From contig JBAXAI010000012.1 of NCBI GenBank assembly GCA_037142615.1, positions 26,415 through 90,414 on the forward strand: a stretch of DNA of 64,000 nucleotides, given 5' to 3'. The DNA is from Spirochaetales bacterium. Its GTDB lineage: Bacteria; Spirochaetota; Spirochaetia; JABEVK01. Positions 3,378 to 63,735 of the stretch are shown here, in pieces. A program made the position numbers and the translations under genes. The notes beneath the pieces are model-generated. The model was not told the origin of the DNA, did no database searches, and saw nothing but the letters and a program-made list of their open reading frames with translations. Position 1 is the stretch's first letter. Every line of letters begins with the position of its first letter.

Positions 3378-4634
3378 ATGGAAATGTTCAACATCGCGCT
3401 GCGAAATGTGTTCCGAAATCCACGCCGAACGGCCCTGAACCTGGTGGCCATCGGCCTGGGCGTCACCATCATCCTCACGATGAAAGGCTGGGTCGGCGGC
3501 CTGTCGACTTCGGCCTACCAGACCCAGATCGACCTCGACACGGCGCACGTGCAGGTGCTCGATTCTCGCTACCAGGAAGAGGCCCGACGTCTGCCGCTCG
3601 ACCTGCGGCTAAGGAATTGGCCCGCCGTGAAAGCCGCGCTGGCCGAGTTGCCCGACCTGGTAGGCGCTGGTCCGCGCCTCGACTTCGCGGCGCAAATCAG
3701 CAACGGGGAGACGGCCCTGACCACCAGCGTCCGTGGGGTTGAGCCGGCCGACGAGGCAAAAACGAACACTGTTGCCCAGCAAATCACCTTGGGCACCTGG
3801 CTGACCGGCGATAACCAGGTGGTCCTCGGCTCGGGCTTGGCCCGGAAACTGAACCTGAACGTGGGCGACCAGGTGTTCCTGACCGCGCTCGACCAGTACG
3901 GGGTGCGCAACTTGGTCGACGCCTCGGTGGCGGGGATTTTTACTACCGGCTACGGCATCTTTGACGACGCGGTGGTGTACACCAGCCTCAAGAAGGCCCA
4001 GGACACGCTGGATCTGGGCCCAGGCGATGCGACCCGACTGGTGCTCAGGTTCCGCAATACAGACAATCTAGACCGGGACGTGGCACGGGTGAAGGCGGCC
4101 TTGGAAAAAGCCGGCCTGGTCCGCTCGGGAGATTCAAGCTTGAGCGTTTACCCGTGGCGTGAGTTCGCCAAGGGCCTGGTCGATACCATTGAGAGTCGGG
4201 TGGCGCTGATGATGGCCGGGCTGGGCCTTCTGGTGGTGCTGGTCACGATCGGCATCCTCAATTCGATGTCGATGGCGGTGCAAGAGCGCTTCCAGGAAAT
4301 CGGCACCTTGCGGGCCATCGGCATGAACCGGCGGCGCCTGAGCCAGATGTTCCTGCTCGAGGGGTTCTGTCTGGGGCTGGCCGGGGGATTGATCGGCATG
4401 ACGGCGGCGGCCCTCCTTGCTTGGGTGGGGGTTACCTATGGGGTCGACGCCCGGGGCTTTTTGCCGCGCGAGGTTCCCGTCCCGCTGGTAACGGTGCTCA
4501 GGCCCACCTACTGGATCACCGATTTTCCGCTCGCCGCGCTGGCCGCCGCCGGGTTGGCCACGCTGGGGTCACTTCTCCCCGCTCGTCGCGCGGGGCAAAT
4601 GGTGATCCGCGACGTGCTCGGCACCCACGTGTAG
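3378..4634 (+). CDS. ABC transporter permease, FtsX family (second permease)
   Basis: 418 aa paralogue of previous permease (LRAIGMNRRRLSQMFLLEGF...). Forms ATPase plus 2 permease module. Confidence 0.85.
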   Translation: MEMFNIALRNVFRNPRRTALNLVAIGLGVTIILTMKGWVGGLSTSAYQTQIDLDTAHVQVLDSRYQEEARRLPLDLRLRNWPAVKAALAELPDLVGAGPRLDFAAQISNGETALTTSVRGVEPADEAKTNTVAQQITLGTWLTGDNQVVLGSGLARKLNLNVGDQVFLTALDQYGVRNLVDASVAGIFTTGYGIFDDAVVYTSLKKAQDTLDLGPGDATRLVLRFRNTDNLDRDVARVKAALEKAGLVRSGDSSLSVYPWREFAKGLVDTIESRVALMMAGLGLLVVLVTIGILNSMSMAVQERFQEIGTLRAIGMNRRRLSQMFLLEGFCLGLAGGLIGMTAAALLAWVGVTYGVDARGFLPREVPVPLVTVLRPTYWITDFPLAALAAAGLATLGSLLPARRAGQMVIRDVLGTHV

Positions 4635-49683: not shown

Positions 49684-49819
49684 ACGCCAATAGTAATTGC
49701 ACCGGGGCCCGGCGTAAACAGCAAAGAAGTCGACTATTCCGTCCTAATCCCCGTCAACAACCGCCAACGCCGGTCAGGGGCAGACACGAGCGCCCGGGCC
49801 GGTGTATGTTGGCGCACCT

Positions 49820-51658
<1,839 letters not shown>

Positions 51659-51695
51659 TGGAGGGGGGCGTCCCCCCCCTGCGCTCCATAAAAAA

Positions 51696-51720
51696 GGCGG
51701 CCCTCGGGCCGCCTTTTGTT
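51696..51720 (+). terminator. rho-independent terminator of typA (GGCGGCCC-TCG-GGGCCGCC + TTTTGTT), preceded by a G7/C8 hairpin
   Basis: Seen directly. Flanks GCGCTCCATAAAAA and TTTGTTATTGCGCTACCCC are repeated at 63604-63660. Confidence 0.65.
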
Positions 51721-51763
51721 ATTGCGCTACCCCCGTGCGGGGACACCCCTCAAGGCCCGATGG

Positions 51764-51813: not shown

Positions 51814-54800
51814 ATGCGAACCGTAAGAGACCTCTGTACAATTCAGCCCGGTGCCCTCGATGTCAGCGTTTCCGATCAGATCGAACGCCTCGACCAATTG
51901 ATCAACGAAAAAGGCGATGGCAGGGAGTTTTTTGACAAGACATTTGTCACGGAAGGCATGAAAGCGATGCTTACCGAGGGGTTTGCGCGCCTCTCGGGGA
52001 AGTCCTCACAGGCACTGTTCCACCTGAAACAGGCGATGGGTGGGGGAAAAACCCACCTTCTAGTCAGTTTTGGACTCTTGGCCAAGAGCGTCGATCTTCG
52101 CCGCTTGGTCACCCCCAACATCGCCTATCACGAGTCTTTCGTTCCGGCCAAGGTCGCCGCCTTCACCGGACGAAACTATCCCAACGAATACTTCTGGGGC
52201 TCTTTGGCGAGCCAACTTGGTAACCCCGCGCTCTTTTCCCGCTATTGGACCAATGGACCGGACGCCCCAGGTGAGGATGCGTGGCTCCAACTGTTTGACG
52301 GTGACCAACCCATACTCATCCTGCTTGACGAATTGCCACCCTACTTTAACTTCTACCGAACCAAAGAAGTCGGCCAGGGGACTGTTGCAGATATAGCGAC
52401 CAGTGCGCTCTCCAACATGTTTTCGGCGGCTAGCAAGAAGGCGAATGTCTGTGTCGTGATCGCCGATCTTAATGCCGCTTACGAGAAAGGCGCCGCGGGG
52501 ATCAACCACGCGCTCGAGGACGCGAAACAGGAGCTTGGTCGGGGGGCAAAAACCATTACACCGGTTGACTTGGCCGGTAATGAAATCTACGCCATCCTAC
52601 GCAAACGTTTGTTCGCCTCGCTGCCAAGCCAGAGTGCCATCGACGAAGTAGCTGCCGGCTATGGAAGGGCGATCGCCGAGGCCAGCCGGGCCAAGATGAT
52701 CGGTCGGTCAGCCGAGGCGATCGCCGACGAAATCAGCCAAACCTACCCGTTCCATCCCAAACTCAAGAACCTCATTGCGTTGTTCAAGGAGAATGAACAG
52801 TTCCGGCAAACACGTGGCCTCATGGAATTGGTTTCCCGACTTCTGAAGAGCGTGTGGACCCGCGAACTGAACGACGTCTACTTGATTGGCCCGCAGCACT
52901 TTGATCTGTCGATCTCCGAGGTTCGCGACAAGCTTGCTGATATTTCCGACATGGCCGACGTGATTGCCAAAGACTTGTGGGACGCCAACGGTGCCGCACA
53001 TGCTCAGGTGATTGACGCTGATACCCAAAATGACGCTGCTCGCATTGCAGCGAATCTCGTGTTCACCTCGAGCCTTTCGACCGCGCACAACGCGGTTCGC
53101 GGCCTGACTTCCGAGGAAATTCTGGAATGTGCCATTAGTCCGTTTCAAGATGCTGCCAGCATCACTACGGCATTGGAGCAACTCAACTTGCAGGCATGGT
53201 ACTTGCACCACTCGGGCGAAGGGAAGTACTTCTTCGACAGGGTCGAGAACCTGACCAAGCTATTGCAGGACCTCGCGGAGAAGGCACCAAGACCTCAGGT
53301 CGACCAGGTGATTCAGAAGAGACTATCCGATCTCTTTCAGCCGACCCGCAAAGTTGCGTACGAAGAAATGATCGCGCTCCCGACTCTCTCGGAGGTGGAA
53401 GACACTATCCGAAAAAAGCGAGTCCTACTCATTCTACCCCCTGAGGGTAAGATCCCTTCCGACGGACTTGAGAAGTTCTTCCAGTCGATTCAGTCCAAAA
53501 ACAACTTGTTGGTGCTGACCGGGGAAAAGAGCGTGATGGACAACCTTGAGGCCAAAGCAAGGTACGTGTTCGCATCCATCAAAGCTGAATCCAGAATCCC
53601 CAAGGGACACGCTCAGCGTGAAGAACTCGAGCGGAAGCAAGAACAGTACTCTGCTGACCTTCTGACCGCGACCCTCAACACGTTCGATAAGGTAGTGTTC
53701 CCCACCCAACGTTCGGGTCAACAGGCTCGCCTTGTCTCCAAGCCGCTTTCTCAAAGCTATAACCAGAGCAAACCTTACAATGGTGAACAGCAGATAGAGG
53801 CCACGTTGGCGGCGGACCCTCTGAAGTTGTATGTCGATGTTGCCCAAGATTTTGAGGCGATTCGCGACAAAGCGCAGGATTTACTGTGGCCGCAAGGGAG
53901 CGACGATACGAGGTGGACGGACGCTCGAGAGCGGGCAACTCAGGAACCGGCCATGCCCTGGCTACCGTCCGTAGGTTCCGCAGGTCTCGAACTCGTGAAA
54001 CAACTGGCTCTCAGCCATGGCAAGTGGGAAGATCTGGGGAACGGATACGTCACCAAGAAACCCCGCCCCAAGAAGGCGTCGTTGCAGATTTCGCAGGAGT
54101 CGGAGCCCGACGACGAAGGCCGAGTCCGCTTGAGGCTGGTACCTCAGAACGCAGGCAATCAACCCAAAATCTACGTTCAGGAAGAAGGGTCGGTCTCACC
54201 TTCCAGCCCAGTTCATCTAGATACACTGTTTTCAACCAAAGCCTTGTGGGCCGAGTTTCTTGTTGTAGACCCTTCGGGCCAAGCCCTGCCCGGTGAGCCA
54301 ATACGGTGGGACAACGAGCTGGTGATTCGTCATCGGGTAAGCGGTCAAGGAGCCCACCGAAGCGTGGAGTTGTACCTGTCGCCGCGCGGAAAACTTTGGT
54401 ACAGCCTCGATGGTACAGAACCTCGAAACGGTGCCTCCTATGATGGCTCCTTCGAAGTCGCAGAAACGGGAGGCCGGCTGCTTGTCTATGGCAAAGCCGA
54501 CGCCCTTGAAAAAAAGGCTGACTTCACGATTCCGGCAGTTCAGCAAAACGAAGTCACCTTCGACGAGAGTCGGCCCGCAAGTCTAGTTCGGCCTTCACCG
54601 TTTCGCCTTGACTCGCGACAGAAGACATTCGAGCTCTTGGAGCTAGCTGCAACCCAACAAGTGGTGTTTTCCAAACTCTCGCTGGCCGTCGGCCAAATGG
54701 CTTCTGCGATTTCGGTGACAATCCCACAGAAAGAAGTTAGCGCCGAGTATCTTCTGAAGATTGTGAAGGCCATTAGCGACGACCTGCCAGCCAGCGAACC

Positions 54801-54906
54801 TATCACTTTAGGGTTTTGCCGCGCCCAGTTTCGCCTTGGCAAAGAGCTCAAGGAGTTCACCGACCGAGCTGGCTTCAATCCGCAGGCAGGAGACATTGTT
54901 CAGTGA
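51814..54906 (+). CDS. large P-loop NTPase (about 1030 aa; Walker A-like MGGGKTHLL near N-terminus), possibly DUF499-type defence ATPase
   Basis: Walker A GGGKTH at aa about 75. Hydrophobic-DELP Walker B-like (ILILLDELPPYF). No other recognisable domain. First gene of coupled operon. Confidence 0.55.
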   Translation: MRTVRDLCTIQPGALDVSVSDQIERLDQLINEKGDGREFFDKTFVTEGMKAMLTEGFARLSGKSSQALFHLKQAMGGGKTHLLVSFGLLAKSVDLRRLVTPNIAYHESFVPAKVAAFTGRNYPNEYFWGSLASQLGNPALFSRYWTNGPDAPGEDAWLQLFDGDQPILILLDELPPYFNFYRTKEVGQGTVADIATSALSNMFSAASKKANVCVVIADLNAAYEKGAAGINHALEDAKQELGRGAKTITPVDLAGNEIYAILRKRLFASLPSQSAIDEVAAGYGRAIAEASRAKMIGRSAEAIADEISQTYPFHPKLKNLIALFKENEQFRQTRGLMELVSRLLKSVWTRELNDVYLIGPQHFDLSISEVRDKLADISDMADVIAKDLWDANGAAHAQVIDADTQNDAARIAANLVFTSSLSTAHNAVRGLTSEEILECAISPFQDAASITTALEQLNLQAWYLHHSGEGKYFFDRVENLTKLLQDLAEKAPRPQVDQVIQKRLSDLFQPTRKVAYEEMIALPTLSEVEDTIRKKRVLLILPPEGKIPSDGLEKFFQSIQSKNNLLVLTGEKSVMDNLEAKARYVFASIKAESRIPKGHAQREELERKQEQYSADLLTATLNTFDKVVFPTQRSGQQARLVSKPLSQSYNQSKPYNGEQQIEATLAADPLKLYVDVAQDFEAIRDKAQDLLWPQGSDDTRWTDARERATQEPAMPWLPSVGSAGLELVKQLALSHGKWEDLGNGYVTKKPRPKKASLQISQESEPDDEGRVRLRLVPQNAGNQPKIYVQEEGSVSPSSPVHLDTLFSTKALWAEFLVVDPSGQALPGEPIRWDNELVIRHRVSGQGAHRSVELYLSPRGKLWYSLDGTEPRNGASYDGSFEVAETGGRLLVYGKADALEKKADFTIPAVQQNEVTFDESRPASLVRPSPFRLDSRQKTFELLELAATQQVVFSKLSLAVGQMASAISVTIPQKEVSAEYLLKIVKAISDDLPASEPITLGFCRAQFRLGKELKEFTDRAGFNPQAGDIVQ

Positions 54907-55490
54907 ACAATCTGCCCCAGTTTGAAGACTTTGGTGCACCCACTAGGGTGGGCTCTCACATCTTCTTGGTCGATATTCCCATCAGTCGTTCAGAGCCGGT
55001 TCTCATTCTGGAAAACTATGGCTTCCTTGGCGGTGAACGGGGTATTCCCGAGAAGGAAACCCGCGTCAGTCTGAATCGCAGCCATTGGTACGGTATTTCG
55101 GAGATCGCCCGACAAGACTTCAACGATCGGCTCAAGGGCAAGAAGATGACGACGAGCCGATGGACGACCGGCCTGAACAAACTCGACAAGCTATTGGGCA
55201 AAGAACTCTGCGTGCTAGCCTGGGCAGCAGAGCAGTCGTCGTTGGAACAGCTGCCCATCGTTTGCCACAGGTGGGTGTCGCTCCGACCAGAGGAACGCTG
55301 GTGGTTGTTTCGCATGACTGTCGCCGAGGCAGGGCTGGCGCAAGACCTCGACCGAGGCTGGCGAAAGGCCCTCCACTTTGCTCTTTCTGATGGTAAGATT
55401 GACGAGCGGCGCATCAAGCGCCCCCGACCCGATGACGACGACGAGGATTTGTCGTTGTTCGGTGGTTCCGTGCAGGAGGTTCACCAGTGA
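54903..55490 (+). CDS. small protein (195 aa) with acidic C-terminal tail (RPRPDDDDEDLSLFGG), function unknown
   Basis: GTG overlapping upstream stop (GTGA). Always-coupled position between the large NTPase and the AAA ATPase. Confidence 0.45.
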   Translation: MNNLPQFEDFGAPTRVGSHIFLVDIPISRSEPVLILENYGFLGGERGIPEKETRVSLNRSHWYGISEIARQDFNDRLKGKKMTTSRWTTGLNKLDKLLGKELCVLAWAAEQSSLEQLPIVCHRWVSLRPEERWWLFRMTVAEAGLAQDLDRGWRKALHFALSDGKIDERRIKRPRPDDDDEDLSLFGGSVQEVHQ

Positions 55491-56533
55491 TTAGCCACCT
55501 CAGCGTTGAAAACTTTGCGGCACTGGAGCAGGCCGAGCTCGACTTTTCCCCGGGGCTGAATGTCATCCTGGGCGAGAACAGCACCGGCAAAAGTTTGCTG
55601 ATGAAATTGATGTATTCCGGCGCTTGGGTCAGCCACTCCTTGGGGAAAGGCGACCGCAAAACCAAAGATGAGCTGCAGCGAGCCATAGCTGACAAGCTGA
55701 AGGCAGTGTGCATTCCTGAATCTCTTGGGAGACTCGTTACCCGGAAGGCGGGCCGAAATCGGTGCACGGTTCGGGTATCGTTCAGCGAACCCCAGAATGC
55801 CTCATTCGGGTTCTCATTCGCCACAAATAGCGATCGTGAAGCCAAACTCGACGGCGCCACCCCCGAAGGCTACCTGAGCTCATCGCCTATTTTCATTCCA
55901 ACAAAAGAAGTTCTTTCGGTGTTCCCCAATTTTGCAGCGACACTTCGCTCCAAGCACCTCTTCTTTGACGATACATACCTTGATTTGCTCGACGCACTCG
56001 ACCAGCCAGTCAACAAAGGGGCCCCCAAGAAGGACGAAAGAGAACTCCGGGATTCACTGGAGCAGGCAATGGCGGGTCGCGTTGTGTTCGACGGAGGCCG
56101 CTTCTACTACCTGCCCGAAGCAGAGGGCAAAGGGAAGATTGAAATGCCGTTGGTTGCCGAAGGCCTACGGAAGATTTCGATCTTGACCTACCTAGTGATG
56201 AACGGTGGCCTGCGCAATAAGTCTCTCTTATTCTGGGACGAACCTGAGGTTAACTTGAACCCCAAACTGATGCGCAGACTTGCCGTCGTGTTGGTCGACA
56301 TGGCCGAGCGCGGGGTTCAAGTGATCCTTGCCACTCATAGTCTGTTCTTGCTCCGCGAGTTGGTCATTGCTCGCGCCAGTAGCAAGACGAAAGAACCCGT
56401 GCGTTTCTTTGCCCTTTCGAAGCAAGGAGACACGCAGAGGGTGACGCAAGGTGACTCGGTCGAAGAGGTCGACCCGTTGGCCAGTCTCGATGCGGAACTG
56501 GAACAGAGCGATCGGTACCTGGAGCTTCCTTGA
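55487..56533 (+). CDS. AAA/ABC-type ATPase (RecF/SMC-like, AAA_21-like: Walker A GENSTGKS ... Walker B LLFWDEPEVNL ... ATHS)
   Basis: GTG start overlapping upstream stop. P-loop at N-terminus, Q/signature region, D-loop and H-loop spacing typical of the OLD/AbiEii/Septu-PtuA-type ABC ATPases. Confidence 0.7.
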   Translation: MISHLSVENFAALEQAELDFSPGLNVILGENSTGKSLLMKLMYSGAWVSHSLGKGDRKTKDELQRAIADKLKAVCIPESLGRLVTRKAGRNRCTVRVSFSEPQNASFGFSFATNSDREAKLDGATPEGYLSSSPIFIPTKEVLSVFPNFAATLRSKHLFFDDTYLDLLDALDQPVNKGAPKKDERELRDSLEQAMAGRVVFDGGRFYYLPEAEGKGKIEMPLVAEGLRKISILTYLVMNGGLRNKSLLFWDEPEVNLNPKLMRRLAVVLVDMAERGVQVILATHSLFLLRELVIARASSKTKEPVRFFALSKQGDTQRVTQGDSVEEVDPLASLDAELEQSDRYLELP

Positions 56534-57072
56534 TGCAAGTCTTCGACGAGCAGGGAATTGCGTTTGCCTTTCCTGACGACTTTGTCGTTTTTCGCCCTCA
56601 ACACTCCGTTTTTTACAGAAAGTTGTGGCAGCGGTTTTCGATCCCCGACGCGGCGGGCGAGAAAGGAAACAAAGAAGCTGACTTCGTTGCCGTCGACCGA
56701 AAGGAGCAACGCCTTTGGCTCATCGAGGCCAAGGACTATCGTGTCCACGAACGCACCAAGCCCGGGTCACTGTCGCAGGAGTTTGCCCGCAAATGCCGCG
56801 ATTCGCTGGCATTGTTGGCCGCGTTGCAGCTCAGTAGCACCGCAGCCGAGGTTGGCGAAACAGCGAGCGGGCTGTTGGATGGTCTCAAGAAGGTTTCTTG
56901 CGTCTTGCACGTCGAGCAGAAGGCAGGTGAAAAACTTTTCCCGCTGGCGGTCAGACCCACTGACCTGAAAGACGCACTGCGTCGCGAACTACATGCCCTT
57001 GACCCCCAGGCGCTCACGGGTACGGCTGCGGAGCTCGCAACACTTCAACTTCCCTTCACCATCACCGTCTAG
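56533..57072 (+). CDS. small PD-(D/E)XK-like putative nuclease (motif D-x19-EAK: ADFVAVD...LWLIEAKD)
   Basis: 179 aa. ATG overlaps ATPase stop (TGATG). D/ExK arrangement consistent with restriction-endonuclease fold (inference). Confidence 0.4.
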   Translation: MQVFDEQGIAFAFPDDFVVFRPQHSVFYRKLWQRFSIPDAAGEKGNKEADFVAVDRKEQRLWLIEAKDYRVHERTKPGSLSQEFARKCRDSLALLAALQLSSTAAEVGETASGLLDGLKKVSCVLHVEQKAGEKLFPLAVRPTDLKDALRRELHALDPQALTGTAAELATLQLPFTITV

Positions 57073-57080
57073 GAGCCCCC

Positions 57081-59042
57081 ATGCCAGTAGTTCCCTTTTC
57101 CCTCAAAGAAGCACCGGCGTTGATCGAAACGCTGTTCCCGGCCCAGAAGTTGTCGATCGAAGCGTACAAGGAACAGATGGCGGGCAGCGGCAAGACCTTG
57201 ACCGCTTTGGGAAGCTACTGGAAGGGCCGCAAGCCGCTCATCTTGAACCGTGCCTGTGTCTTGGGCTGCCTGCTGCCGGTGACTGCCAACCCCATCCGGG
57301 ACCTCGAGATTTTCGAGAAGCTAATGGCCATGGACGAAACCGCGCTAACTCACCGTCTCAAGGCCAAGAACGACAAGAAGAGTCGCTCTCTTATTTCCAG
57401 CTATCAACATAAGGTCGATGCCGCCTGTCGCCCCGAGGAGTGCGACAACACTTTGTACGACGGGATTTGGCCCGAGGTAAACGCTCACTTGGGCACCGAA
57501 GCGACGAGCTTTCCCGAGTTGGTGGAACAGCTGGGAATCATGCGCTTTGGCCACCGTCCCCGGTTTGCCGACGTGTTTTCGGGCAGCGGGCAGATTCCCT
57601 TCGAGGCCGCCCGGCTGGGCTGCGACGTGTACGCCAGCGACCTGAACCCCGTGGCCTGCATGCTTACTTGGGGCTCGTTTCATTTGGTGGGTGCCCAGCC
57701 CGAGGAGCGGCAAGAGATTGCAGTGGCGCAGGCACGGTTGGTGCAGAAGGTGCAGTCCGAAGTCGATGCCTTGGGCATCGAGAACGACGGCAAGGGATGG
57801 CGGGCTAAGGCCTTTCTGTATTGCGTCGAGGTAAGGTGCCCCCAGACAGGCTGGATGGTGCCGCTGATTCCCAGTTTGATTGTCAGCCAGCCACGTACGG
57901 GCGAGGTGCGCAACAACGTGGTGGTTCAGCTGGTTCCCCTGCCCGCCGAAAAGCGCTACCGCATTGATGTGGTTTCGTTCGCCACTGAAGCCCAACTGGC
58001 TCAAGCCGAACTCGGCACCGTACAGGGCGGCGAGATGGTGCATTCGCCCGACGGTACCAAGGTGTACCGCACCAAGATCAGCACCTTGCGGGGGGATTAC
58101 GCCGAGGGCGGCGAAACCAAGAACAGGCTGCGAATGTGGGAAAAGCATGACTTTGTAGCTCGGCCCCACGACCTATACCAAGAGCGACTGTACTGTGTGC
58201 AGTGGCTTCGCACCAAAGCCGCTGGCCGGGGGCAGGAGTACGAGTTCCGGTCGGTGACTCCCGACGACCTGACGCGCGAGAAAACAGTGATCGACTTTGT
58301 GGGATCACGGCTGGCCGAATGGCAGGCCAAGGGTTGGGTCCCCGACATGGTGATCGAGGCCGGGGCCAAGACCGACGAGCCGATTCGCACCCGGGGCTGG
58401 ACTCACTGGCACCACCTGTTCAACCCGAGGCAGTTGCTGGTGGCGGGGTTGGTGCGGCAAAACATCAACTCCACCACGGCGTTCGGACTGTCGCAGGTGA
58501 TCAACTGGAACAGCCGGTTGTGTCGATGGAATATGGGCAGCGGTGGCGGTGGCAGTATCCAGGACGTATTCTACAATCAGGCTCTCAATACTCTTTTCAA
58601 CTACGGTTGTCGTAACACAGCTCTGGCCCTTACCCAGGTCGACCTCGGTGCCAGGAGCTTTCCTTTCGCCAAAGGAGTGAAGGCTGAAGTGAAGACTCAC
58701 GCGGCCAACGCCATCACCGCGCCCACCGATCTGTTCATCACCGACCCGCCGTACGGCGACGCCGTCAAGTACGAAGAAATCCTCGAGTTCTTCATCGCCT
58801 GGCTGCGCAAGAACCCGCCTGCCGAGTTCAAAGGTTGGGTGTGGGACAGCCGCCGGGTGATGGCCATCAAGGGTGAAGACGACAAGTTCCGGCAGGCCAT
58901 GATCGACGCGTATTCGGCCATTACGCGTTGTATGCCCGACAACGGTATGCAGGTCATCATGTTCACCCACCAGTCGGGCAGCATTTGGGCCGACATGGCG
59001 CACATCGTGTGGGCGGCGGGGCTGCAGGTCACGGCGGCGTAG
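57081..59042 (+). CDS. N6-adenine DNA methyltransferase (motif I FxGxG: DVFSGSGQIPFE; motif IV DPPY: FITDPPYGD), terminated by in-frame TAG
   Basis: AGGAG RBS. SAM-binding motif near aa 165 and DPPY near aa 545 with a large intervening region. Ends at TAG 59040-42. Confidence 0.75.
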   Translation: MPVVPFSLKEAPALIETLFPAQKLSIEAYKEQMAGSGKTLTALGSYWKGRKPLILNRACVLGCLLPVTANPIRDLEIFEKLMAMDETALTHRLKAKNDKKSRSLISSYQHKVDAACRPEECDNTLYDGIWPEVNAHLGTEATSFPELVEQLGIMRFGHRPRFADVFSGSGQIPFEAARLGCDVYASDLNPVACMLTWGSFHLVGAQPEERQEIAVAQARLVQKVQSEVDALGIENDGKGWRAKAFLYCVEVRCPQTGWMVPLIPSLIVSQPRTGEVRNNVVVQLVPLPAEKRYRIDVVSFATEAQLAQAELGTVQGGEMVHSPDGTKVYRTKISTLRGDYAEGGETKNRLRMWEKHDFVARPHDLYQERLYCVQWLRTKAAGRGQEYEFRSVTPDDLTREKTVIDFVGSRLAEWQAKGWVPDMVIEAGAKTDEPIRTRGWTHWHHLFNPRQLLVAGLVRQNINSTTAFGLSQVINWNSRLCRWNMGSGGGGSIQDVFYNQALNTLFNYGCRNTALALTQVDLGARSFPFAKGVKAEVKTHAANAITAPTDLFITDPPYGDAVKYEEILEFFIAWLRKNPPAEFKGWVWDSRRVMAIKGEDDKFRQAMIDAYSAITRCMPDNGMQVIMFTHQSGSIWADMAHIVWAAGLQVTAA

Positions 59043-59045
59043 TAC

Positions 59046-59915
59046 GTGGTCACCGAAACCGACAGCGCCTTGCGCGGCAGCAACAACGTCAAAGGAACAG
59101 TGCTTCTGGTACTCCGCAAACGACAGGGTGAACACAAAAGCAGCCGCAGCGACTTGGGGTGGGAACTGCAAGAAGAAGTCGACCGGCAAGTGCAGACTCT
59201 GACCGGTCTGAACCAGAGCGCGAAGACTCTGTACCGAGACGAAAACTTGTTCAGCGACGCCGACCTACAGATGGCGGGCTACGCGGCGGCGCTGCGAGTG
59301 CTTACCCGGTACACATTCATCGACGGCAAAGACATGCGTATCGAGGCCGGGCGCCCCAAACAGAAGGGCAAGAAGGACTTTGTCGAGCAGCTGATCGACT
59401 TTGCCGTCGAGACCGCCAACGGGGCTTTGGTCCCCTTGGGGCTGGAACGTTCCGTGTGGGAAAAGCTTACCCCCGGCGAGCGGTTCTACCTCAAGATGAT
59501 CGACCTCGAGTCGCAAGGGGCCAAGTCGCTCGACAACTACCAAAACTTCGCCAAAGCGTTCAAGGTGCCTGACTACCGGCTGTACCTGGCCGAAGACCGG
59601 GCCAACCATGCCCGCCTTAAGTCAGGCGCCGATTTTGGACGCAGCGAAATGTCCGACTCTTCCGAACTGGCGGGCACCCGGCTCCGGGGCTTGCTGTATG
59701 GCTTGATGGAACTGGGCCAAGGCGTCGAGTCCGACGATGTGCTGGGTCACCTGAGTCTGAACGTGAAGAACTACTTCAACTGCCGTTTGGAACTTGTCGA
59801 AATCGCCGACTTCTTGGCCGCCAAGCTGGAGCACCTGGACGCCGACCAGGCCAGCCACGCACGCGTGCTGCGCGACCTGGTACGCCACCAGAAACTCGGC
59901 GCCTGGGAAAACTGA
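59046..59915 (+). CDS. C-terminal continuation of the methyltransferase reading frame (289 aa, same frame, separated only by TAG + one codon)
   Basis: 57081 and 59046 are both congruent mod 3. E plus F would give about 944 aa. Either a split gene or nonsense-interrupted pseudogene. Confidence 0.5.
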   Translation: MVTETDSALRGSNNVKGTVLLVLRKRQGEHKSSRSDLGWELQEEVDRQVQTLTGLNQSAKTLYRDENLFSDADLQMAGYAAALRVLTRYTFIDGKDMRIEAGRPKQKGKKDFVEQLIDFAVETANGALVPLGLERSVWEKLTPGERFYLKMIDLESQGAKSLDNYQNFAKAFKVPDYRLYLAEDRANHARLKSGADFGRSEMSDSSELAGTRLRGLLYGLMELGQGVESDDVLGHLSLNVKNYFNCRLELVEIADFLAAKLEHLDADQASHARVLRDLVRHQKLGAWEN

Positions 59916-62665
59916 TGCCGATTCGACGTTTTTCCTCGCTGCACGAGCGCCTCGACAAGAGCTTTCTGGCCGAACACCTCAAGGGTGCCCGCTCATATCG
60001 CCGCATCGCCGGGTACTTCCGGTCGTCCATCTTCGAGCTGGTGGGCGAAGAAATCGCCGGTATTCCCGACGTACGAATTCTGTGCAACAGCGAACTCGAT
60101 GTGCACGACATCAATGTAGCCCAGGAAGCCAGCCGCAACGTTGCCTTGAAGGAAAAGTGGAATCAGGTTCCTGTGGAAGTGGAAGGGCTACTCCACAAGC
60201 ACCGTTATAGGGCCCTCTACGACTTGCTCATGGCCGGAAACCTGAAGATCCAGGTGGTTCCCAAAGACAGCGTGTTCGTGCACGGCAAGGCGGGCGTCAT
60301 CGAAGGCGCCGATGGCAAGCGGATCGCCTTCTTGGGCTCGATCAACGAAAGCAAGTCGGCGTTCCTGACCAATTACGAAATTCTTTGGGAAGACGACAGC
60401 CCGGAAGGTGTCGCGTGGGTCGACCGTGAGTTTGACGAGCTTTGGAAGCGCAGCTACCCCTTGCCGCAAGCCATTATCGAAGAAATCGGCAGAGTGGCCA
60501 ACCGAACCGAGGTCAGGTTCGAGGATTTAGAAGACGCCGACATTCCCGCCTCGGCGTTGGTAGAGGCGCCCATCTACCGTGGCGGCGAGCAATTGCAGCC
60601 CTGGCAGCGGTCCTTCGTGACGCTATTTCAGAAGCATCGCGATATGTACGGCAAAGTACGCCTATTGCTGGCCGACGAAGTCGGGTTGGGAAAGACCCTC
60701 TCACTGGCCACCGCAGCGATGGTGGCCAACCTCATGGGCGATGGCCCCGTTCTCATCCTGTGCCCGGCGACCTTGGTGTGGCAATGGCAGGTCGAACTCA
60801 AAGATCGGCTGGGGATTCCCAGCTGCGTGTGGGAATCCAGCAAGAAGGTTTGGGTCGACCCCGAGGGCCGGGTGATCCCTACCAAGGGTGCCGAAGACAT
60901 CGCCAAGTGTCCCTTCCAAGTCGCCATTGTCTCTACGGGGCTCATTTTCCAATCGTCCCGCGCGCGCGAACCCGAGGTGTTGTTGCAGCGCCGGGGTGGC
61001 TACGGAACTGTAGTGCTGGACGAGGCACACAAAGCCCGCAAGCGCGGTGGCCTGGGCCAACGTGACGCCGAACCCAACAACCTGCTTGAGTTCATGCTCC
61101 GCATTGGCGAGAAAACTCGACACCTGCTTTTGGGAACGGCGACGCCCATCCAAACCAACGTGGAAGAGCTTTGGGACCTCATGGAGATCCTTTCGGTCAA
61201 GGCGGAGTTCGTGCTGGGTCGGGAAACGCCTTCTTACTGGCGCCGCATGGACTTCGCGCTCCCACTGATCAAAGGGGAATCGGTACCTGAAAGTGCGCTC
61301 GAAGCTTGGGATCTGCTTCGAAACCCACTGCCACCGATTCAGGAGACCTGCGAACCGGCTGCGATGATTCGGACCCTGCTCGAGTTGGAAGACAGTCGAT
61401 TCTTCGTTCCTACAGGATACCATCAGCTCGATCCGACCGTTCAGATGCAGGTAGACCAAGCTATGGAACCAGGTTTTTTTCGCGAACATAACCCTTTGCT
61501 CAGGCACGTCGTCTTGCGGAAACGGGCCCGATTGGAAGACTTGGGTCTGTTGGAACGCATCCGTGTCGACGTTCATCCGGACCCTGAATTGGGCCCTGGA
61601 GCCTACCCCGGAATCCCCTTTGCCGTAGAGGGACAGGGACTCCTGACCAATCAACCGTTCAACCTAGCTTACCGAGCTGCCGAGGAATTTACGCGCCTCC
61701 TTGCATCCAAAGTAAAGAGTGCGGGGTTCATGAAGTCCCTGATGCTGCAACGAATCTGCTCGAGCTTTGCGTCGGGACTTTCGACAGCCCGAAAGATCAT
61801 GGCAAAAGCAATCTTGGGCGACTCGGAAGATGAATCCCAATCGATGTCTGCCGTCTACGACGCCATTGGCGAAGAAGAACTCGCCCAACTGCAGATCATT
61901 GTTGACGAGCTTTCGCGGCCGGAAGCCCGTGACCCCAAACTGGGGGCGGTGAAGCATTTTCTGCTGGAACATCGGTCCGCGTTTGATGACACTTTGGCTC
62001 AACCTCACAACTGGCTCGAATACGGGTGCATCATCTTTTCGCAGTACTACGACACTGCGCTCTGGGTGGCGAAAGAGCTCGCCAGGGTGCTCCCCGACGA
62101 ACCGGTCGGTGTCTACGCTGGTTCAGAGAAGAGTGGGATCTACCGCAACGACGACTTCAGTAGCGTTGAGCGTCATCAGCTCAAACTTGCGGTCAAAGAT
62201 CGAAGTATCCGGCTCATGGTGGCTACCGACGCGGCGTGTGAGGGACTCAACCTTCAAACCCTTGGAACACTAATAAACGTTGACCTCCCGTGGAACCCGA
62301 GCCGTCTGGAACAACGTCTGGGCCGCATCAAGCGCTTTGGTCAGGCTCGCAGAAGCGTCGACATGCTCAATTTGGTCTACCACGACACCCAGGACCAGAA
62401 GGTCTATTCAGTGATTTCCCAGCGACTTAAGGACAAGTTCGACATTTTCGGCAGCCTTCCCGATACGATCGACGACGAGTGGATTGCCGACGAGCAAACA
62501 TTGGAAGAGCGACTAAATCAGTACCTCCATCTCCGTGATCAAGCCAAGAATGCGTTTGAACTCCGCTATGAAGATGACGTCGACCCCGAGAAGAATCGAT
62601 GGGAGCTTTGTAGCCGAGTTCTCAGTCGAAAGGACATCGAAGAGAGAATGGCAAAGAGTTGGTAA
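59915..62665 (+). CDS. PLD-family (HKD) nuclease domain fused to SNF2/DEAD-like superfamily 2 helicase
   Basis: N-terminal HxK...D / GSxN (VHGKAGVIEGADGKRIAFLGSINESKSAF). Helicase motif I LLADEVGLGKT, II VVLDEAHKARK, III LLLGTATPIQ, C-terminal helicase domain (MVATDAACEGLNLQ, QRLGRIKRFGQ). ATG overlaps upstream stop (TGATG). Confidence 0.8.
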   Translation: MPIRRFSSLHERLDKSFLAEHLKGARSYRRIAGYFRSSIFELVGEEIAGIPDVRILCNSELDVHDINVAQEASRNVALKEKWNQVPVEVEGLLHKHRYRALYDLLMAGNLKIQVVPKDSVFVHGKAGVIEGADGKRIAFLGSINESKSAFLTNYEILWEDDSPEGVAWVDREFDELWKRSYPLPQAIIEEIGRVANRTEVRFEDLEDADIPASALVEAPIYRGGEQLQPWQRSFVTLFQKHRDMYGKVRLLLADEVGLGKTLSLATAAMVANLMGDGPVLILCPATLVWQWQVELKDRLGIPSCVWESSKKVWVDPEGRVIPTKGAEDIAKCPFQVAIVSTGLIFQSSRAREPEVLLQRRGGYGTVVLDEAHKARKRGGLGQRDAEPNNLLEFMLRIGEKTRHLLLGTATPIQTNVEELWDLMEILSVKAEFVLGRETPSYWRRMDFALPLIKGESVPESALEAWDLLRNPLPPIQETCEPAAMIRTLLELEDSRFFVPTGYHQLDPTVQMQVDQAMEPGFFREHNPLLRHVVLRKRARLEDLGLLERIRVDVHPDPELGPGAYPGIPFAVEGQGLLTNQPFNLAYRAAEEFTRLLASKVKSAGFMKSLMLQRICSSFASGLSTARKIMAKAILGDSEDESQSMSAVYDAIGEEELAQLQIIVDELSRPEARDPKLGAVKHFLLEHRSAFDDTLAQPHNWLEYGCIIFSQYYDTALWVAKELARVLPDEPVGVYAGSEKSGIYRNDDFSSVERHQLKLAVKDRSIRLMVATDAACEGLNLQTLGTLINVDLPWNPSRLEQRLGRIKRFGQARRSVDMLNLVYHDTQDQKVYSVISQRLKDKFDIFGSLPDTIDDEWIADEQTLEERLNQYLHLRDQAKNAFELRYEDDVDPEKNRWELCSRVLSRKDIEERMAKSW

Positions 62666-62900: not shown

Positions 62901-63537
62901 GCACGAGCCCATCGAGCACCGCCACATCGACTGCGAAGAAAGCTACACCGGCATCGTCACCGAAAAGCTGAGCATGCGCAAATGCCGCATGACCAACATG
63001 GTCAACCACGGCAGCGGTCGCGTGCGCCTGGAGTTTTCGGCCCCCAGCCGCTCGCTCATCGGTTACCGCGACGAGTTCCTCACCGATACCAAAGGCACCG
63101 GCCTGATGAACAGCTACCTCGCCGGCTACGAACCCTACCGCGGCGAAATCCCGAGCCGTAACAACGGCTCTTTGGTGTGCGACCGCCAGGGCGAAGCCGT
63201 GGCCTACGGCATTTTCCACCTCGAACCCCGCGGCCGCATTTTCGTGGTGCCCGGCGACAAGGTGTACGAAGGCATGATCGTCGGCGAACACAACCGCGAC
63301 CTCGACCTCGACATCAACGTGTGCAAGGAAAAGAAACTCAGCAACATGCGCTCCGCCGGCAAAGACGACAACATTTTGCTCACGCCCGTGAAGCCCATGA
63401 CGCTAGAGGCCAGCCTGAACTTTTTGCGCGACGACGAGTGGCTGGAAGTGACCCCGAAGAATTTGCGGTTGCGGAAGCAATACCTGGGGATTGCGGATCG
63501 GAAGCAACACAGTAAGAAACTCAACGACGGGGTGTAG
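62901..63537 (+). pseudogene. typA: diverged duplicate of the 3' terminal ~640 bp of typA (encodes C-terminal about 211 aa of TypA, no 5' part)
   Basis: Aligns with 51022-51658 at roughly 90% nucleotide identity with mostly synonymous differences. Encoded peptide nearly identical (…DKVYEG… vs …DKCYEG…). Confidence 0.8.
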
Positions 63538-63617
63538 CTAGGACCGGAGAGTTTTTGGCGAAGCCAGAAACTCTGGGGCTAAGGTACCGTAGGTGCCGTG
63601 CCCGCGCTCCATAAAAA

Positions 63618-63643
63618 CAGCCCCGTCAACGGGGCTGTTTGTT
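63618..63643 (+). terminator. rho-independent terminator after the typA fragment (CAGCCCCG-TCAA-CGGGGCTG + TTTGTT)
   Basis: Same conserved flanks as the typA terminator at 51696-51720 but a completely different stem sequence. Confidence 0.6.
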
Positions 63644-63735
63644 ATTGCGCTACCCCGGCGCAGACTTCGCTAGCGCCTGCCGGGCGTCGCCCGGAGCCCG
63701 GATCGCGTGCTATAACACTCCTGTGAGACCGATTC

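Follow-up and report, generated by a model that had tools for sequence, protein, structure and literature searches.

A DUF499/DUF3780 gene pair in a Spirochaetales genome very probably encodes MtsA and MtsB of the MANTIS anti-phage system

The locus and its assignment

A 64,000-nucleotide stretch of DNA (hereafter, the window) from a metagenome-assembled genome (MAG) of a Spirochaetales bacterium (GTDB lineage Bacteria; Spirochaetota; Spirochaetia; JABEVK01; assembly GCA_037142615.1, contig JBAXAI010000012.1, positions 26,415 to 90,414 of the forward strand) carries a tight co-directional string of genes on the + strand at 51814-62665. It is led by two overlapping genes, at 51814-54906 and 54903-55490, which an earlier note, made from the sequence alone, had described as a large P-loop protein with a small acidic-tailed partner. 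The two products are very probably MtsA and MtsB of MANTIS, a four-gene defence system also known as Gao_RL and as the Type-2 DUF499-centred BREX-related (BR) system. All four core proteins belong to the MANTIS families, their genes form an A-B-C-D operon, mtsA and mtsB are translationally coupled, and the ATPase motifs are intact. The family has already been named, annotated and mechanistically characterised as one of defence, and the pair is an ordinary example of it, in this sense already known.

The same four-gene set has received several names. According to a mechanistic preprint of September 2026 (bioRxiv 10.64898/2026.09.23.753747), it corresponds to Gao_RL or Gao_29, which Gao et al. 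2020 called 'restriction-like'; the preprint itself names the set MANTIS, with the genes mtsA-D. In a 2026 survey in Nucleic Acids Research (PMC12839542) it is the Type-2 DUF499-centred BR system, which was reported from 1120 taxa, 98% of them with a standalone DUF3780 protein. The Introduction of the preprint prints 'DUF3870' for MtsB; the family is DUF3780 (PF12635), and this probable typing error may mislead text searches. NCBIfam, PADLOC and DefenseFinder already cover the family, and its mechanism became public in 2026, so that the locus carries little weight as a discovery; it does extend MANTIS to a Spirochaetales MAG.

Family membership and synteny

The large protein scored 1329.2 bits against NCBIfam NF042962 (anti-phage-associated DUF499; cut-off 1200) and 1370 bits against the PADLOC model PDLC02192 (DUF499), the latter across residues 1-1030, whereas the small protein scored 217.6 bits against NF042961 (DUF3780; cut-off 200) and matched Pfam PF12635 (DUF3780) with an E-value of 7.7e-66. 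Pfam found DUF499 alone in the large protein and DUF3780 alone in the small one, and no nuclease, methylase or helicase domain in the former, as had been read from the letters in the earlier note; the likeness to BrxC/PglY- or DUF499-type defence ATPases that was suspected there is borne out on the DUF499 side. At the locus as a whole, PADLOC gave full-length matches for DUF499, DUF3780, DUF1156_MTase and PLD_Helicase. The last of these is MtsD, which reached 1372 bits over its full length and 1186.6 bits against NF042964 (cut-off 1100); it contains the Pfam domains PLDc_2, SNF2-rel_dom and Helicase_C, with the HKD/PLD part fused N-terminally to the helicase, and the motifs HGK at 123, GLGKT at 257 and DEAH at 369.

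Identical proteins are present in the public collection, where NCBI names them 'anti-phage-associated DUF3780/DUF499 domain-containing protein [Spirochaetales bacterium]', and homologues on RefSeq plasmids bear the same anti-phage-associated name. Homologues number 5225 for the large protein at E<=1e-10 and 2679 for the small protein at E<=1e-5. With thousands of homologues and many invariant alignment columns, the two are real genes and not chance open reading frames (ORFs).

Synteny was examined by following 30 aligned DUF3780 proteins to 80 loci on contigs of a one-genome-per-species collection, onto which the proteins of the window were mapped. mtsA lies directly upstream of mtsB in 78 of the 80 loci, and in 74 the beginning of mtsC comes next after mtsB. 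In each of the 37 loci with all four genes complete, the order is A-B-C-D on one strand; conserved synteny with the methyltransferase (MTase) and PLD-SNF2 genes, whose absence, like homology to a non-defence family, would have spoken against a defence role, is thus evident in this sample, and the homology leads to anti-phage-associated families. The order A-B-C-D also holds in the window, where 1.6 kb are inserted between B and C (Table 1).

The GTG start of mtsB at 54903 overlaps the TGA stop of mtsA (54904-54906) in the string cAGTGAac, as the earlier note had observed for the 195-residue gene. Such a 4-nt overlap occurs at 71 of 77 mtsA/mtsB junctions (ATGA in 48, GTGA in 23), so the GTGA coupling is a family trait, and its conservation points to linked translation of the two genes. 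The mechanical ORF list also holds a longer, TTG-started form of the mtsB ORF (54816-55490).

Table 1. Features of the defence island and its borders (window positions).
Feature	Position	Strand	Basis
mtsA, DUF499 AAA+ ATPase, 1030 aa	51814..54906	+	ATG start; NF042962, PDLC02192, motifs
mtsB, DUF3780 protein, 195 aa	54903..55490	+	GTG start; NF042961, PF12635
MtsB tail, residues 166-195	55398..55490	+	
HEC-02 ABC-type ATPase, 348 aa, embedded cargo, non-core	55487..56533	+	PDLC04146, 355.6 bits
HEC-02 small NERD/PD-(D/E)xK-like protein, 180 aa, embedded cargo	56530..57072	+	PDLC04145, 99 bits
mtsC, DUF1156 N6-adenine MTase, interrupted (57081-59042 + 59046-59915, same frame)	57081..59915	+	profiles, motifs
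mtsD, PLD(HKD)-SNF2 helicase-nuclease, 916 aa	59915..62665	+	NF042964, Pfam, motifs
Left repeat copy, 3' end of intact typA/bipA (49802-51658)	51022..51656	+	sequence comparison
Right repeat copy, orphan typA 3' fragment (TypA profile positions 392-593)	62901..63535	+	sequence comparison
Hairpin and T-run after typA at the left island edge, likely typA terminator	51692..51717	+	folding -22 kcal/mol, z = -5.1

Architecture of the two proteins

In MtsA, the Walker A motif AMGGGKTHLL occupies residues 74-83 (with K79/T80) and DELP residues 172-175 (with D172/E173), so that both elements named by the earlier note in the 1030-residue ORF are real. Its remark that the motifs differ from those of known defence ATPases fails, as the Walker A and B, arginine-finger and sensor-2 residues all match DUF499. 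In an alignment of 31 MtsA sequences (53-69% identical to that of the window), K79, T80, D172, E173, R243 (the arginine-finger position) and R334 (the sensor-2 position) are invariant and H81 is nearly so. The corresponding residues of Pseudomonas aeruginosa MtsA are K80 (Walker A), E174 (Walker B), the adenine-stacking H82, the arginine finger R244 and the sensor-2 R336 (bioRxiv 10.64898/2026.09.23.753747), that is, the key residues of the window protein are offset by 1-2 positions from the published numbering. MtsA has been placed in the ORC/Cdc6 clade and found similar to BrxC (bioRxiv 10.64898/2026.09.23.753747; PMC12839542).

An AlphaFold2 model of MtsA (mean pLDDT 67, pTM 0.31) has a confident alpha/beta ATPase core at residues ~30-220 and predicts a tail of two beta-sandwich domains (~745-910) followed by an RRM/ferredoxin-like domain (~920-1020). 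In a Foldseek search of the PDB, the best matches were tandem pairs of Ig/FnIII-like domains (E 2.9e-4), and the AAA+/RecA matches were weak; PF13287 and PF13290 are found in MtsA homologues. According to the survey, two FnIII-like domains precede a C-terminal RRM-like domain in the DUF499 protein of 53% of Type-2 taxa (PMC12839542), and the predicted tail agrees with this architecture. The part of the protein that the earlier note had left unassigned is thereby filled in.

The DUF3780 family is strongly conserved, with a mean column identity of 67% and 58 invariant columns in the 30-protein alignment. The MtsB model (pLDDT 67) consists of three strands followed by five helices, with a tail (residues 166-195) predicted to be disordered, and closely resembles the four-stranded sheet with five helices described in the literature (PMC12839542; bioRxiv 10.64898/2026.09.23.753747). 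A fold search of the PDB gave no credible match for the model, in agreement with the published work, and the survey describes the DUF3780 fold as having no detectable homologue (PMC12839542).

The computed isoelectric point of MtsB is 8.6 for residues 1-170, a basic core, and 4.5 for the tail, which ends in ...KRPRPDDDDEDLSLFGGSVQEVHQ. The acidic tail described in the earlier note is thus present in this protein, but it is not a conserved feature: a long Asp/Glu run is restricted to a small clade and is longer in the window than in most homologues, whereas what the family keeps are the elements RPRP (R173, R175, P176) and LSLF (L185, F186), with 1-3 acidic residues between them in most members. 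Part of the published MtsB dimer interface lies at residues 167-190 in the published numbering (bioRxiv 10.64898/2026.09.23.753747), and the conserved tail may have a role in dimerisation, by a comparison with the P. aeruginosa numbering made without alignment. The RPRP...LSLF peptide may also be a docking element by which MtsB activates MtsA or MtsC, and it offers a concrete handle on the MtsB activation step, which the MANTIS preprint leaves unexplained.

Embedded cargo, interrupted mtsC and island borders

Between mtsB and mtsC lies a HEC-02 pair (55487-57072), with 4-nt overlaps at both upstream junctions. Its ATPase matches PDLC04146 over the full length and has a Walker A (GENSTGKS at 29) and a Walker B (LLFWDE at 247), and the NERD/PD-(D/E)xK-like protein has an ExK motif (E66-A-K68); an ABC-type ATPase adjacent to a small NERD/PD-(D/E)xK protein is the composition of HEC-02. 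This system defends against phage on its own, for which both genes are needed, and Hma provided the first described case of HEC-type embedded cargo (10.1101/2024.01.29.577857). The A and B labels of the PADLOC HEC-02 models are inconsistent with the naming in that paper.

The HEC-02 pair recurs only in close relatives (~67-68% identity), namely one of the 80 genome loci (L001) and two loci from a metagenome look-up (L084 and L085), and it is absent from 76 of the 77 loci readable for at least 300 bp past mtsB. Insertions as such are common: more than 300 bp separate mtsB and mtsC in 19 of 74 loci, and mtsC and mtsD in 31 of 49. Cargo found in MANTIS operons includes SLFN_AlbA_2/HATPase_c_4 proteins (16 ORFs in their cluster), YhcG/DUF1016 nucleases, DarT with a macro-domain (DarG-like) partner, GmrSD, PIN toxin modules and MNT-HepT pairs. 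With HEC-02 lodged in a BREX-related operon, the locus provides a Type-2 example of "guilt-by-embedding".

The MTase gene mtsC is interrupted by an in-frame TAG at 59040-59042 (codon 654), which leaves ORFs of 653 and 289 aa. This codon is TGG (Trp) in all 57 aligned homologues, where it lies within the conserved VTAAWYVVTE. The fragments cover positions 131-678 and 682-959 of the 960 of the NF042963 profile, each alone scoring below its cut-off, and give 1059 and 363 bits against PADLOC PDLC02189 (DUF1156_MTase); the motifs FSGSG at 166 and DPPY at 555 are retained. Given the MAG source, the TAG is either a true nonsense allele or a single-base assembly error.

Similar lesions occur elsewhere in the family. 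Among the 80 loci, most of them MAG-derived, apparent frameshifts or stops affect mtsC in 8 of 52, mtsA in 4 of 59 and mtsD in 4 of 42, reflecting decay or assembly error. In L084 (15281-18134) and L085 (9251-12104), which come from two separate samples and have ~68% identical MtsA, mtsC is frameshifted near codon 515, whereas L081 (67% identical), which lacks HEC-02, has an intact MtsC of 957 aa. Within the HEC-02-bearing clade (the window, L001, L084 and L085), mtsC is broken in both readable lineages and at different sites, by the TAG at codon 654 and the frameshift near 515. A link between mtsC disruption and HEC-02 carriage was rejected, the background of 8 in 52 being too high and two lineages too few; phase variation of mtsC was rejected as well, as the frameshift in L084 and L085 lies outside any homopolymer or simple repeat.

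The island, 11.9 kb in length, lies between two copies of a 635-bp direct repeat of the 3' end of typA/bipA. The copies show 94.5% identity, which is complete over the last ~175 bp. The terminator region at 51678-51733 is duplicated in diverged form at 63601-63656; the typA hairpin itself was missed by a consensus terminator scan and then confirmed by folding. Inspection of the window genes revealed no integrase or transposase between the repeats, and an integrative element as the source of the repeat was rejected for want of an integrase there. The G+C content falls from ~0.64 in the flanks to 0.55-0.60 across the island genes. The gap from the typA terminator to mtsA is ~100 bp and holds no regulator gene, and a scan for consensus promoters in front of mtsA detected none of the sigma-70-like type. 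In the relative L085, a 63-aa HTH_17 gene lies just upstream of mtsA (3767-3958).

Proposed mechanism

The mechanism proposed for the window is transferred by homology from the P. aeruginosa system, in which the steps were shown in a single preprint (bioRxiv 10.64898/2026.09.23.753747). MtsC, a monomer that would be unable to bind DNA alone, would be loaded onto unmodified asymmetric 6-bp sites by MtsA, which would act as a dimeric AAA+ switch of the ORC/Cdc6 clade. Nucleotide binding by MtsA, together with the MtsB dimer, would then lead to hemimethylation, that is, methylation of one strand, and ATP hydrolysis by MtsA would reset this ATPase and allow turnover for the next round. The MtsABC recognition complex would also license MtsD, a dimeric PLD-SNF2 motor-nuclease, for restriction, which would need all four proteins and both ATPases and would be strongest at inverted pairs of unmodified sites; the preprint authors propose that restriction proceeds via MtsD translocation.

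Experiments in P. aeruginosa showed that the MTase depends on MtsA for loading and activation, that MtsB promotes methylation, and that restriction requires both proteins (bioRxiv 10.64898/2026.09.23.753747). By analogy, the suggestion of the earlier note that the pair may be the sensing or regulatory part of the system is sound in essence, with MtsB as a probable co-activator.

Alternative explanations

Several points weigh against assigning the pair to a working MANTIS system. The likeness to the P. aeruginosa and E. coli proteins that were studied by experiment is drawn from family profiles and motif positions. The PDB set searched contains no solved structure of a DUF499 or DUF3780 family member; sequence searches of this set, which is without the published MtsA, MtsB and BrxC structures, with MtsA, MtsB and a 31-sequence MtsA profile gave nothing at E<=1. 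The AlphaFold2 models are of moderate confidence (pLDDT 67), and residues 221-480 of MtsA are poorly modelled. An Arc/CopG-like regulator, MtsR, lies upstream of mtsA in the published Pseudomonas system (bioRxiv 10.64898/2026.09.23.753747), and the 155-bp gap ahead of mtsA in the window leaves no room for an MtsR-like repressor gene. The mechanism comes from one preprint, in which the nuclease activity of MtsD was not directly measured and the action of MtsB is unresolved, and it would apply here by analogy. Finally, the interruption of mtsC makes the function of the system in the source genome uncertain.

This last point leads to the alternative with the greatest claim to attention, namely that the pair is a relic of a decaying, non-functional locus in which the TAG abolishes both methylation and targeting. 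Such a reading is compatible with MANTIS identity and is a serious possibility, although we consider it somewhat the less probable outcome. It gains from the replacement of a tryptophan codon invariant in 57 of 57 homologues, from the finding that apparent disruptions of mtsC, mtsA and mtsD are not rare in the family, and from the frameshifted mtsC of the nearest HEC-02-bearing relatives; moreover, in the model system, knocking out mtsC stops restriction without being toxic (bioRxiv 10.64898/2026.09.23.753747). Since both methylation and targeting depend on MtsC, the system may be off without toxicity, and, if the TAG is real, it would be a natural nonsense allele that silences the system safely, in keeping with the published non-toxic loss of MtsC. 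However, all other genes are intact and their motifs invariant, a single base in a MAG may be an assembly error or a minority variant, and a GTG restart at 59046 could give a two-piece MTase. A different departure concerns the HEC-02 insert: MtsA and MtsB would act for its ATPase-nuclease pair as well, perhaps in sensing, and so form a hybrid system. HEC-02 directly follows mtsB, with 4-nt overlaps at both junctions, and the arrangement recurs in L001, L084 and L085; nevertheless, cloned HEC-02 defends alone with only its two genes, 76 of 77 loci lack it, and the same position is taken by unrelated cargo elsewhere, which makes a hybrid very unlikely. We regard with equal scepticism the notion that the HEC-02 clade is a rewired one, in which MtsA and MtsB, alone or together with MtsD, would partner the ABC-ATPase/NERD nuclease independently of methylation.

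Within MANTIS, the role of MtsB has been seen differently in the survey, where it was hypothesised to be a reader of modified bases that replaces the TUDOR domain of other BR helicases, rather than a co-activator of methylation. Some DUF3780 proteins are indeed fused to ASCH/PUA or RAMA reader domains (PMC12839542), yet in the reconstitution MtsB gave no DNA shift alone and was absent from the shifted MtsA-MtsC-DNA band, and the complex did not form on pre-methylated DNA, from which the authors concluded that MtsB is apparently no modification reader (bioRxiv 10.64898/2026.09.23.753747); as the MtsB fold also has no match to known reader domains, this role is improbable. Membership in another system has still less in its favour. 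Hma (Type-1 BR, with a helicase, a methylase and the ATPase HmaC) gave partial matches to HmaC (177.5 bits, only over residues 32-668), HmaB (73.4 bits) and HmaA (110.8 bits), and its precedent for HEC-type cargo fits; but the DUF499, DUF1156_MTase and PLD_Helicase models match at 1370, 1059+363 and 1372 bits over the full length, against 177, 73 and 111, and a standalone DUF3780 protein and an N-terminal HKD/PLD on the helicase define Type-2 BR, not Type-1 (PMC12839542). Hma membership, which we rejected on these grounds, is exceedingly unlikely. That the large protein is the BrxC/PglY ATPase of BREX is scarcely credible either: DUF499 has the ORC/Cdc6-type AAA+ core, the winged helix-turn-helix and the dimer interface in common with BrxC (bioRxiv 10.64898/2026.09.23.753747; PMC12839542), and the MTase has a weak PglX match (43 bits), whereas the predicted MtsA tail consists of two FnIII-like domains and an RRM-like domain instead of a coiled coil, and none of the seven proteins matched a BrxC, PglZ, BrxA or BrxB model at E<=0.01. 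DISARM was rejected too; DrmD models match the helicase half of MtsD (135 bits), and beyond partial DrmD and DrmA helicase-domain matches to MtsD there is no DUF1998 protein.

Comparison with known systems

Compared with MANTIS (Gao_RL, Type-2 BR), the window has the same four families, gene order, mtsA/mtsB coupling and predicted domain layout, and it shares the Walker A and B, arginine-finger and sensor-2 motifs of MtsA, FxGxG and DPPY of MtsC, and the HKD and helicase Walker A of MtsD. It differs in lacking an mtsR gene, in the HEC-02 insert, in the TAG in mtsC and in the longer acidic run of MtsB, and its host is a Spirochaetales MAG, as opposed to Pseudomonas and E. coli. Hma (Type-1 BR) has in common with it a DUF499-type ATPase, a DUF1156-type N6-MTase, a superfamily 2 helicase-nuclease and a tendency to embedded defence cargo; however, Hma lacks DUF3780, and its helicase begins with a TUDOR and ends with a restriction endonuclease domain, where that of the window has an N-terminal PLD.

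BREX shares the principle that a dimeric AAA+ ATPase of the ORC/Cdc6 clade (BrxC/PglY) controls a hemimethylating N6-MTase, which directs both modification and restriction. In contrast, the locus contains no PglZ, BrxA or BrxB, the C-terminal tail of its ATPase is different, its MTase is of group alpha with a nested target recognition domain, and the effector is a PLD-SNF2 nuclease. DISARM (DrmD, SNF2; DrmC, PLD; DrmMI) also combines an SNF2 helicase, PLD chemistry and an adenine MTase, whereas the locus has neither DrmA nor DrmB (DUF1998), its PLD and SNF2 parts are fused, and the DUF499/DUF3780 pair is present.

Finally, MANTIS resembles Type III and Type ISP restriction-modification in that asymmetric sites are hemimethylated, sites communicate in an ATP-dependent manner and inverted sites are preferred, and MtsD is similar to SauUSI, a dimeric PLD-helicase (bioRxiv 10.64898/2026.09.23.753747). 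Unlike these systems, MANTIS depends for methylation on a separate AAA+ loader, MtsA, and on MtsB, and its response to site orientation is a graded one, not a strict rule.

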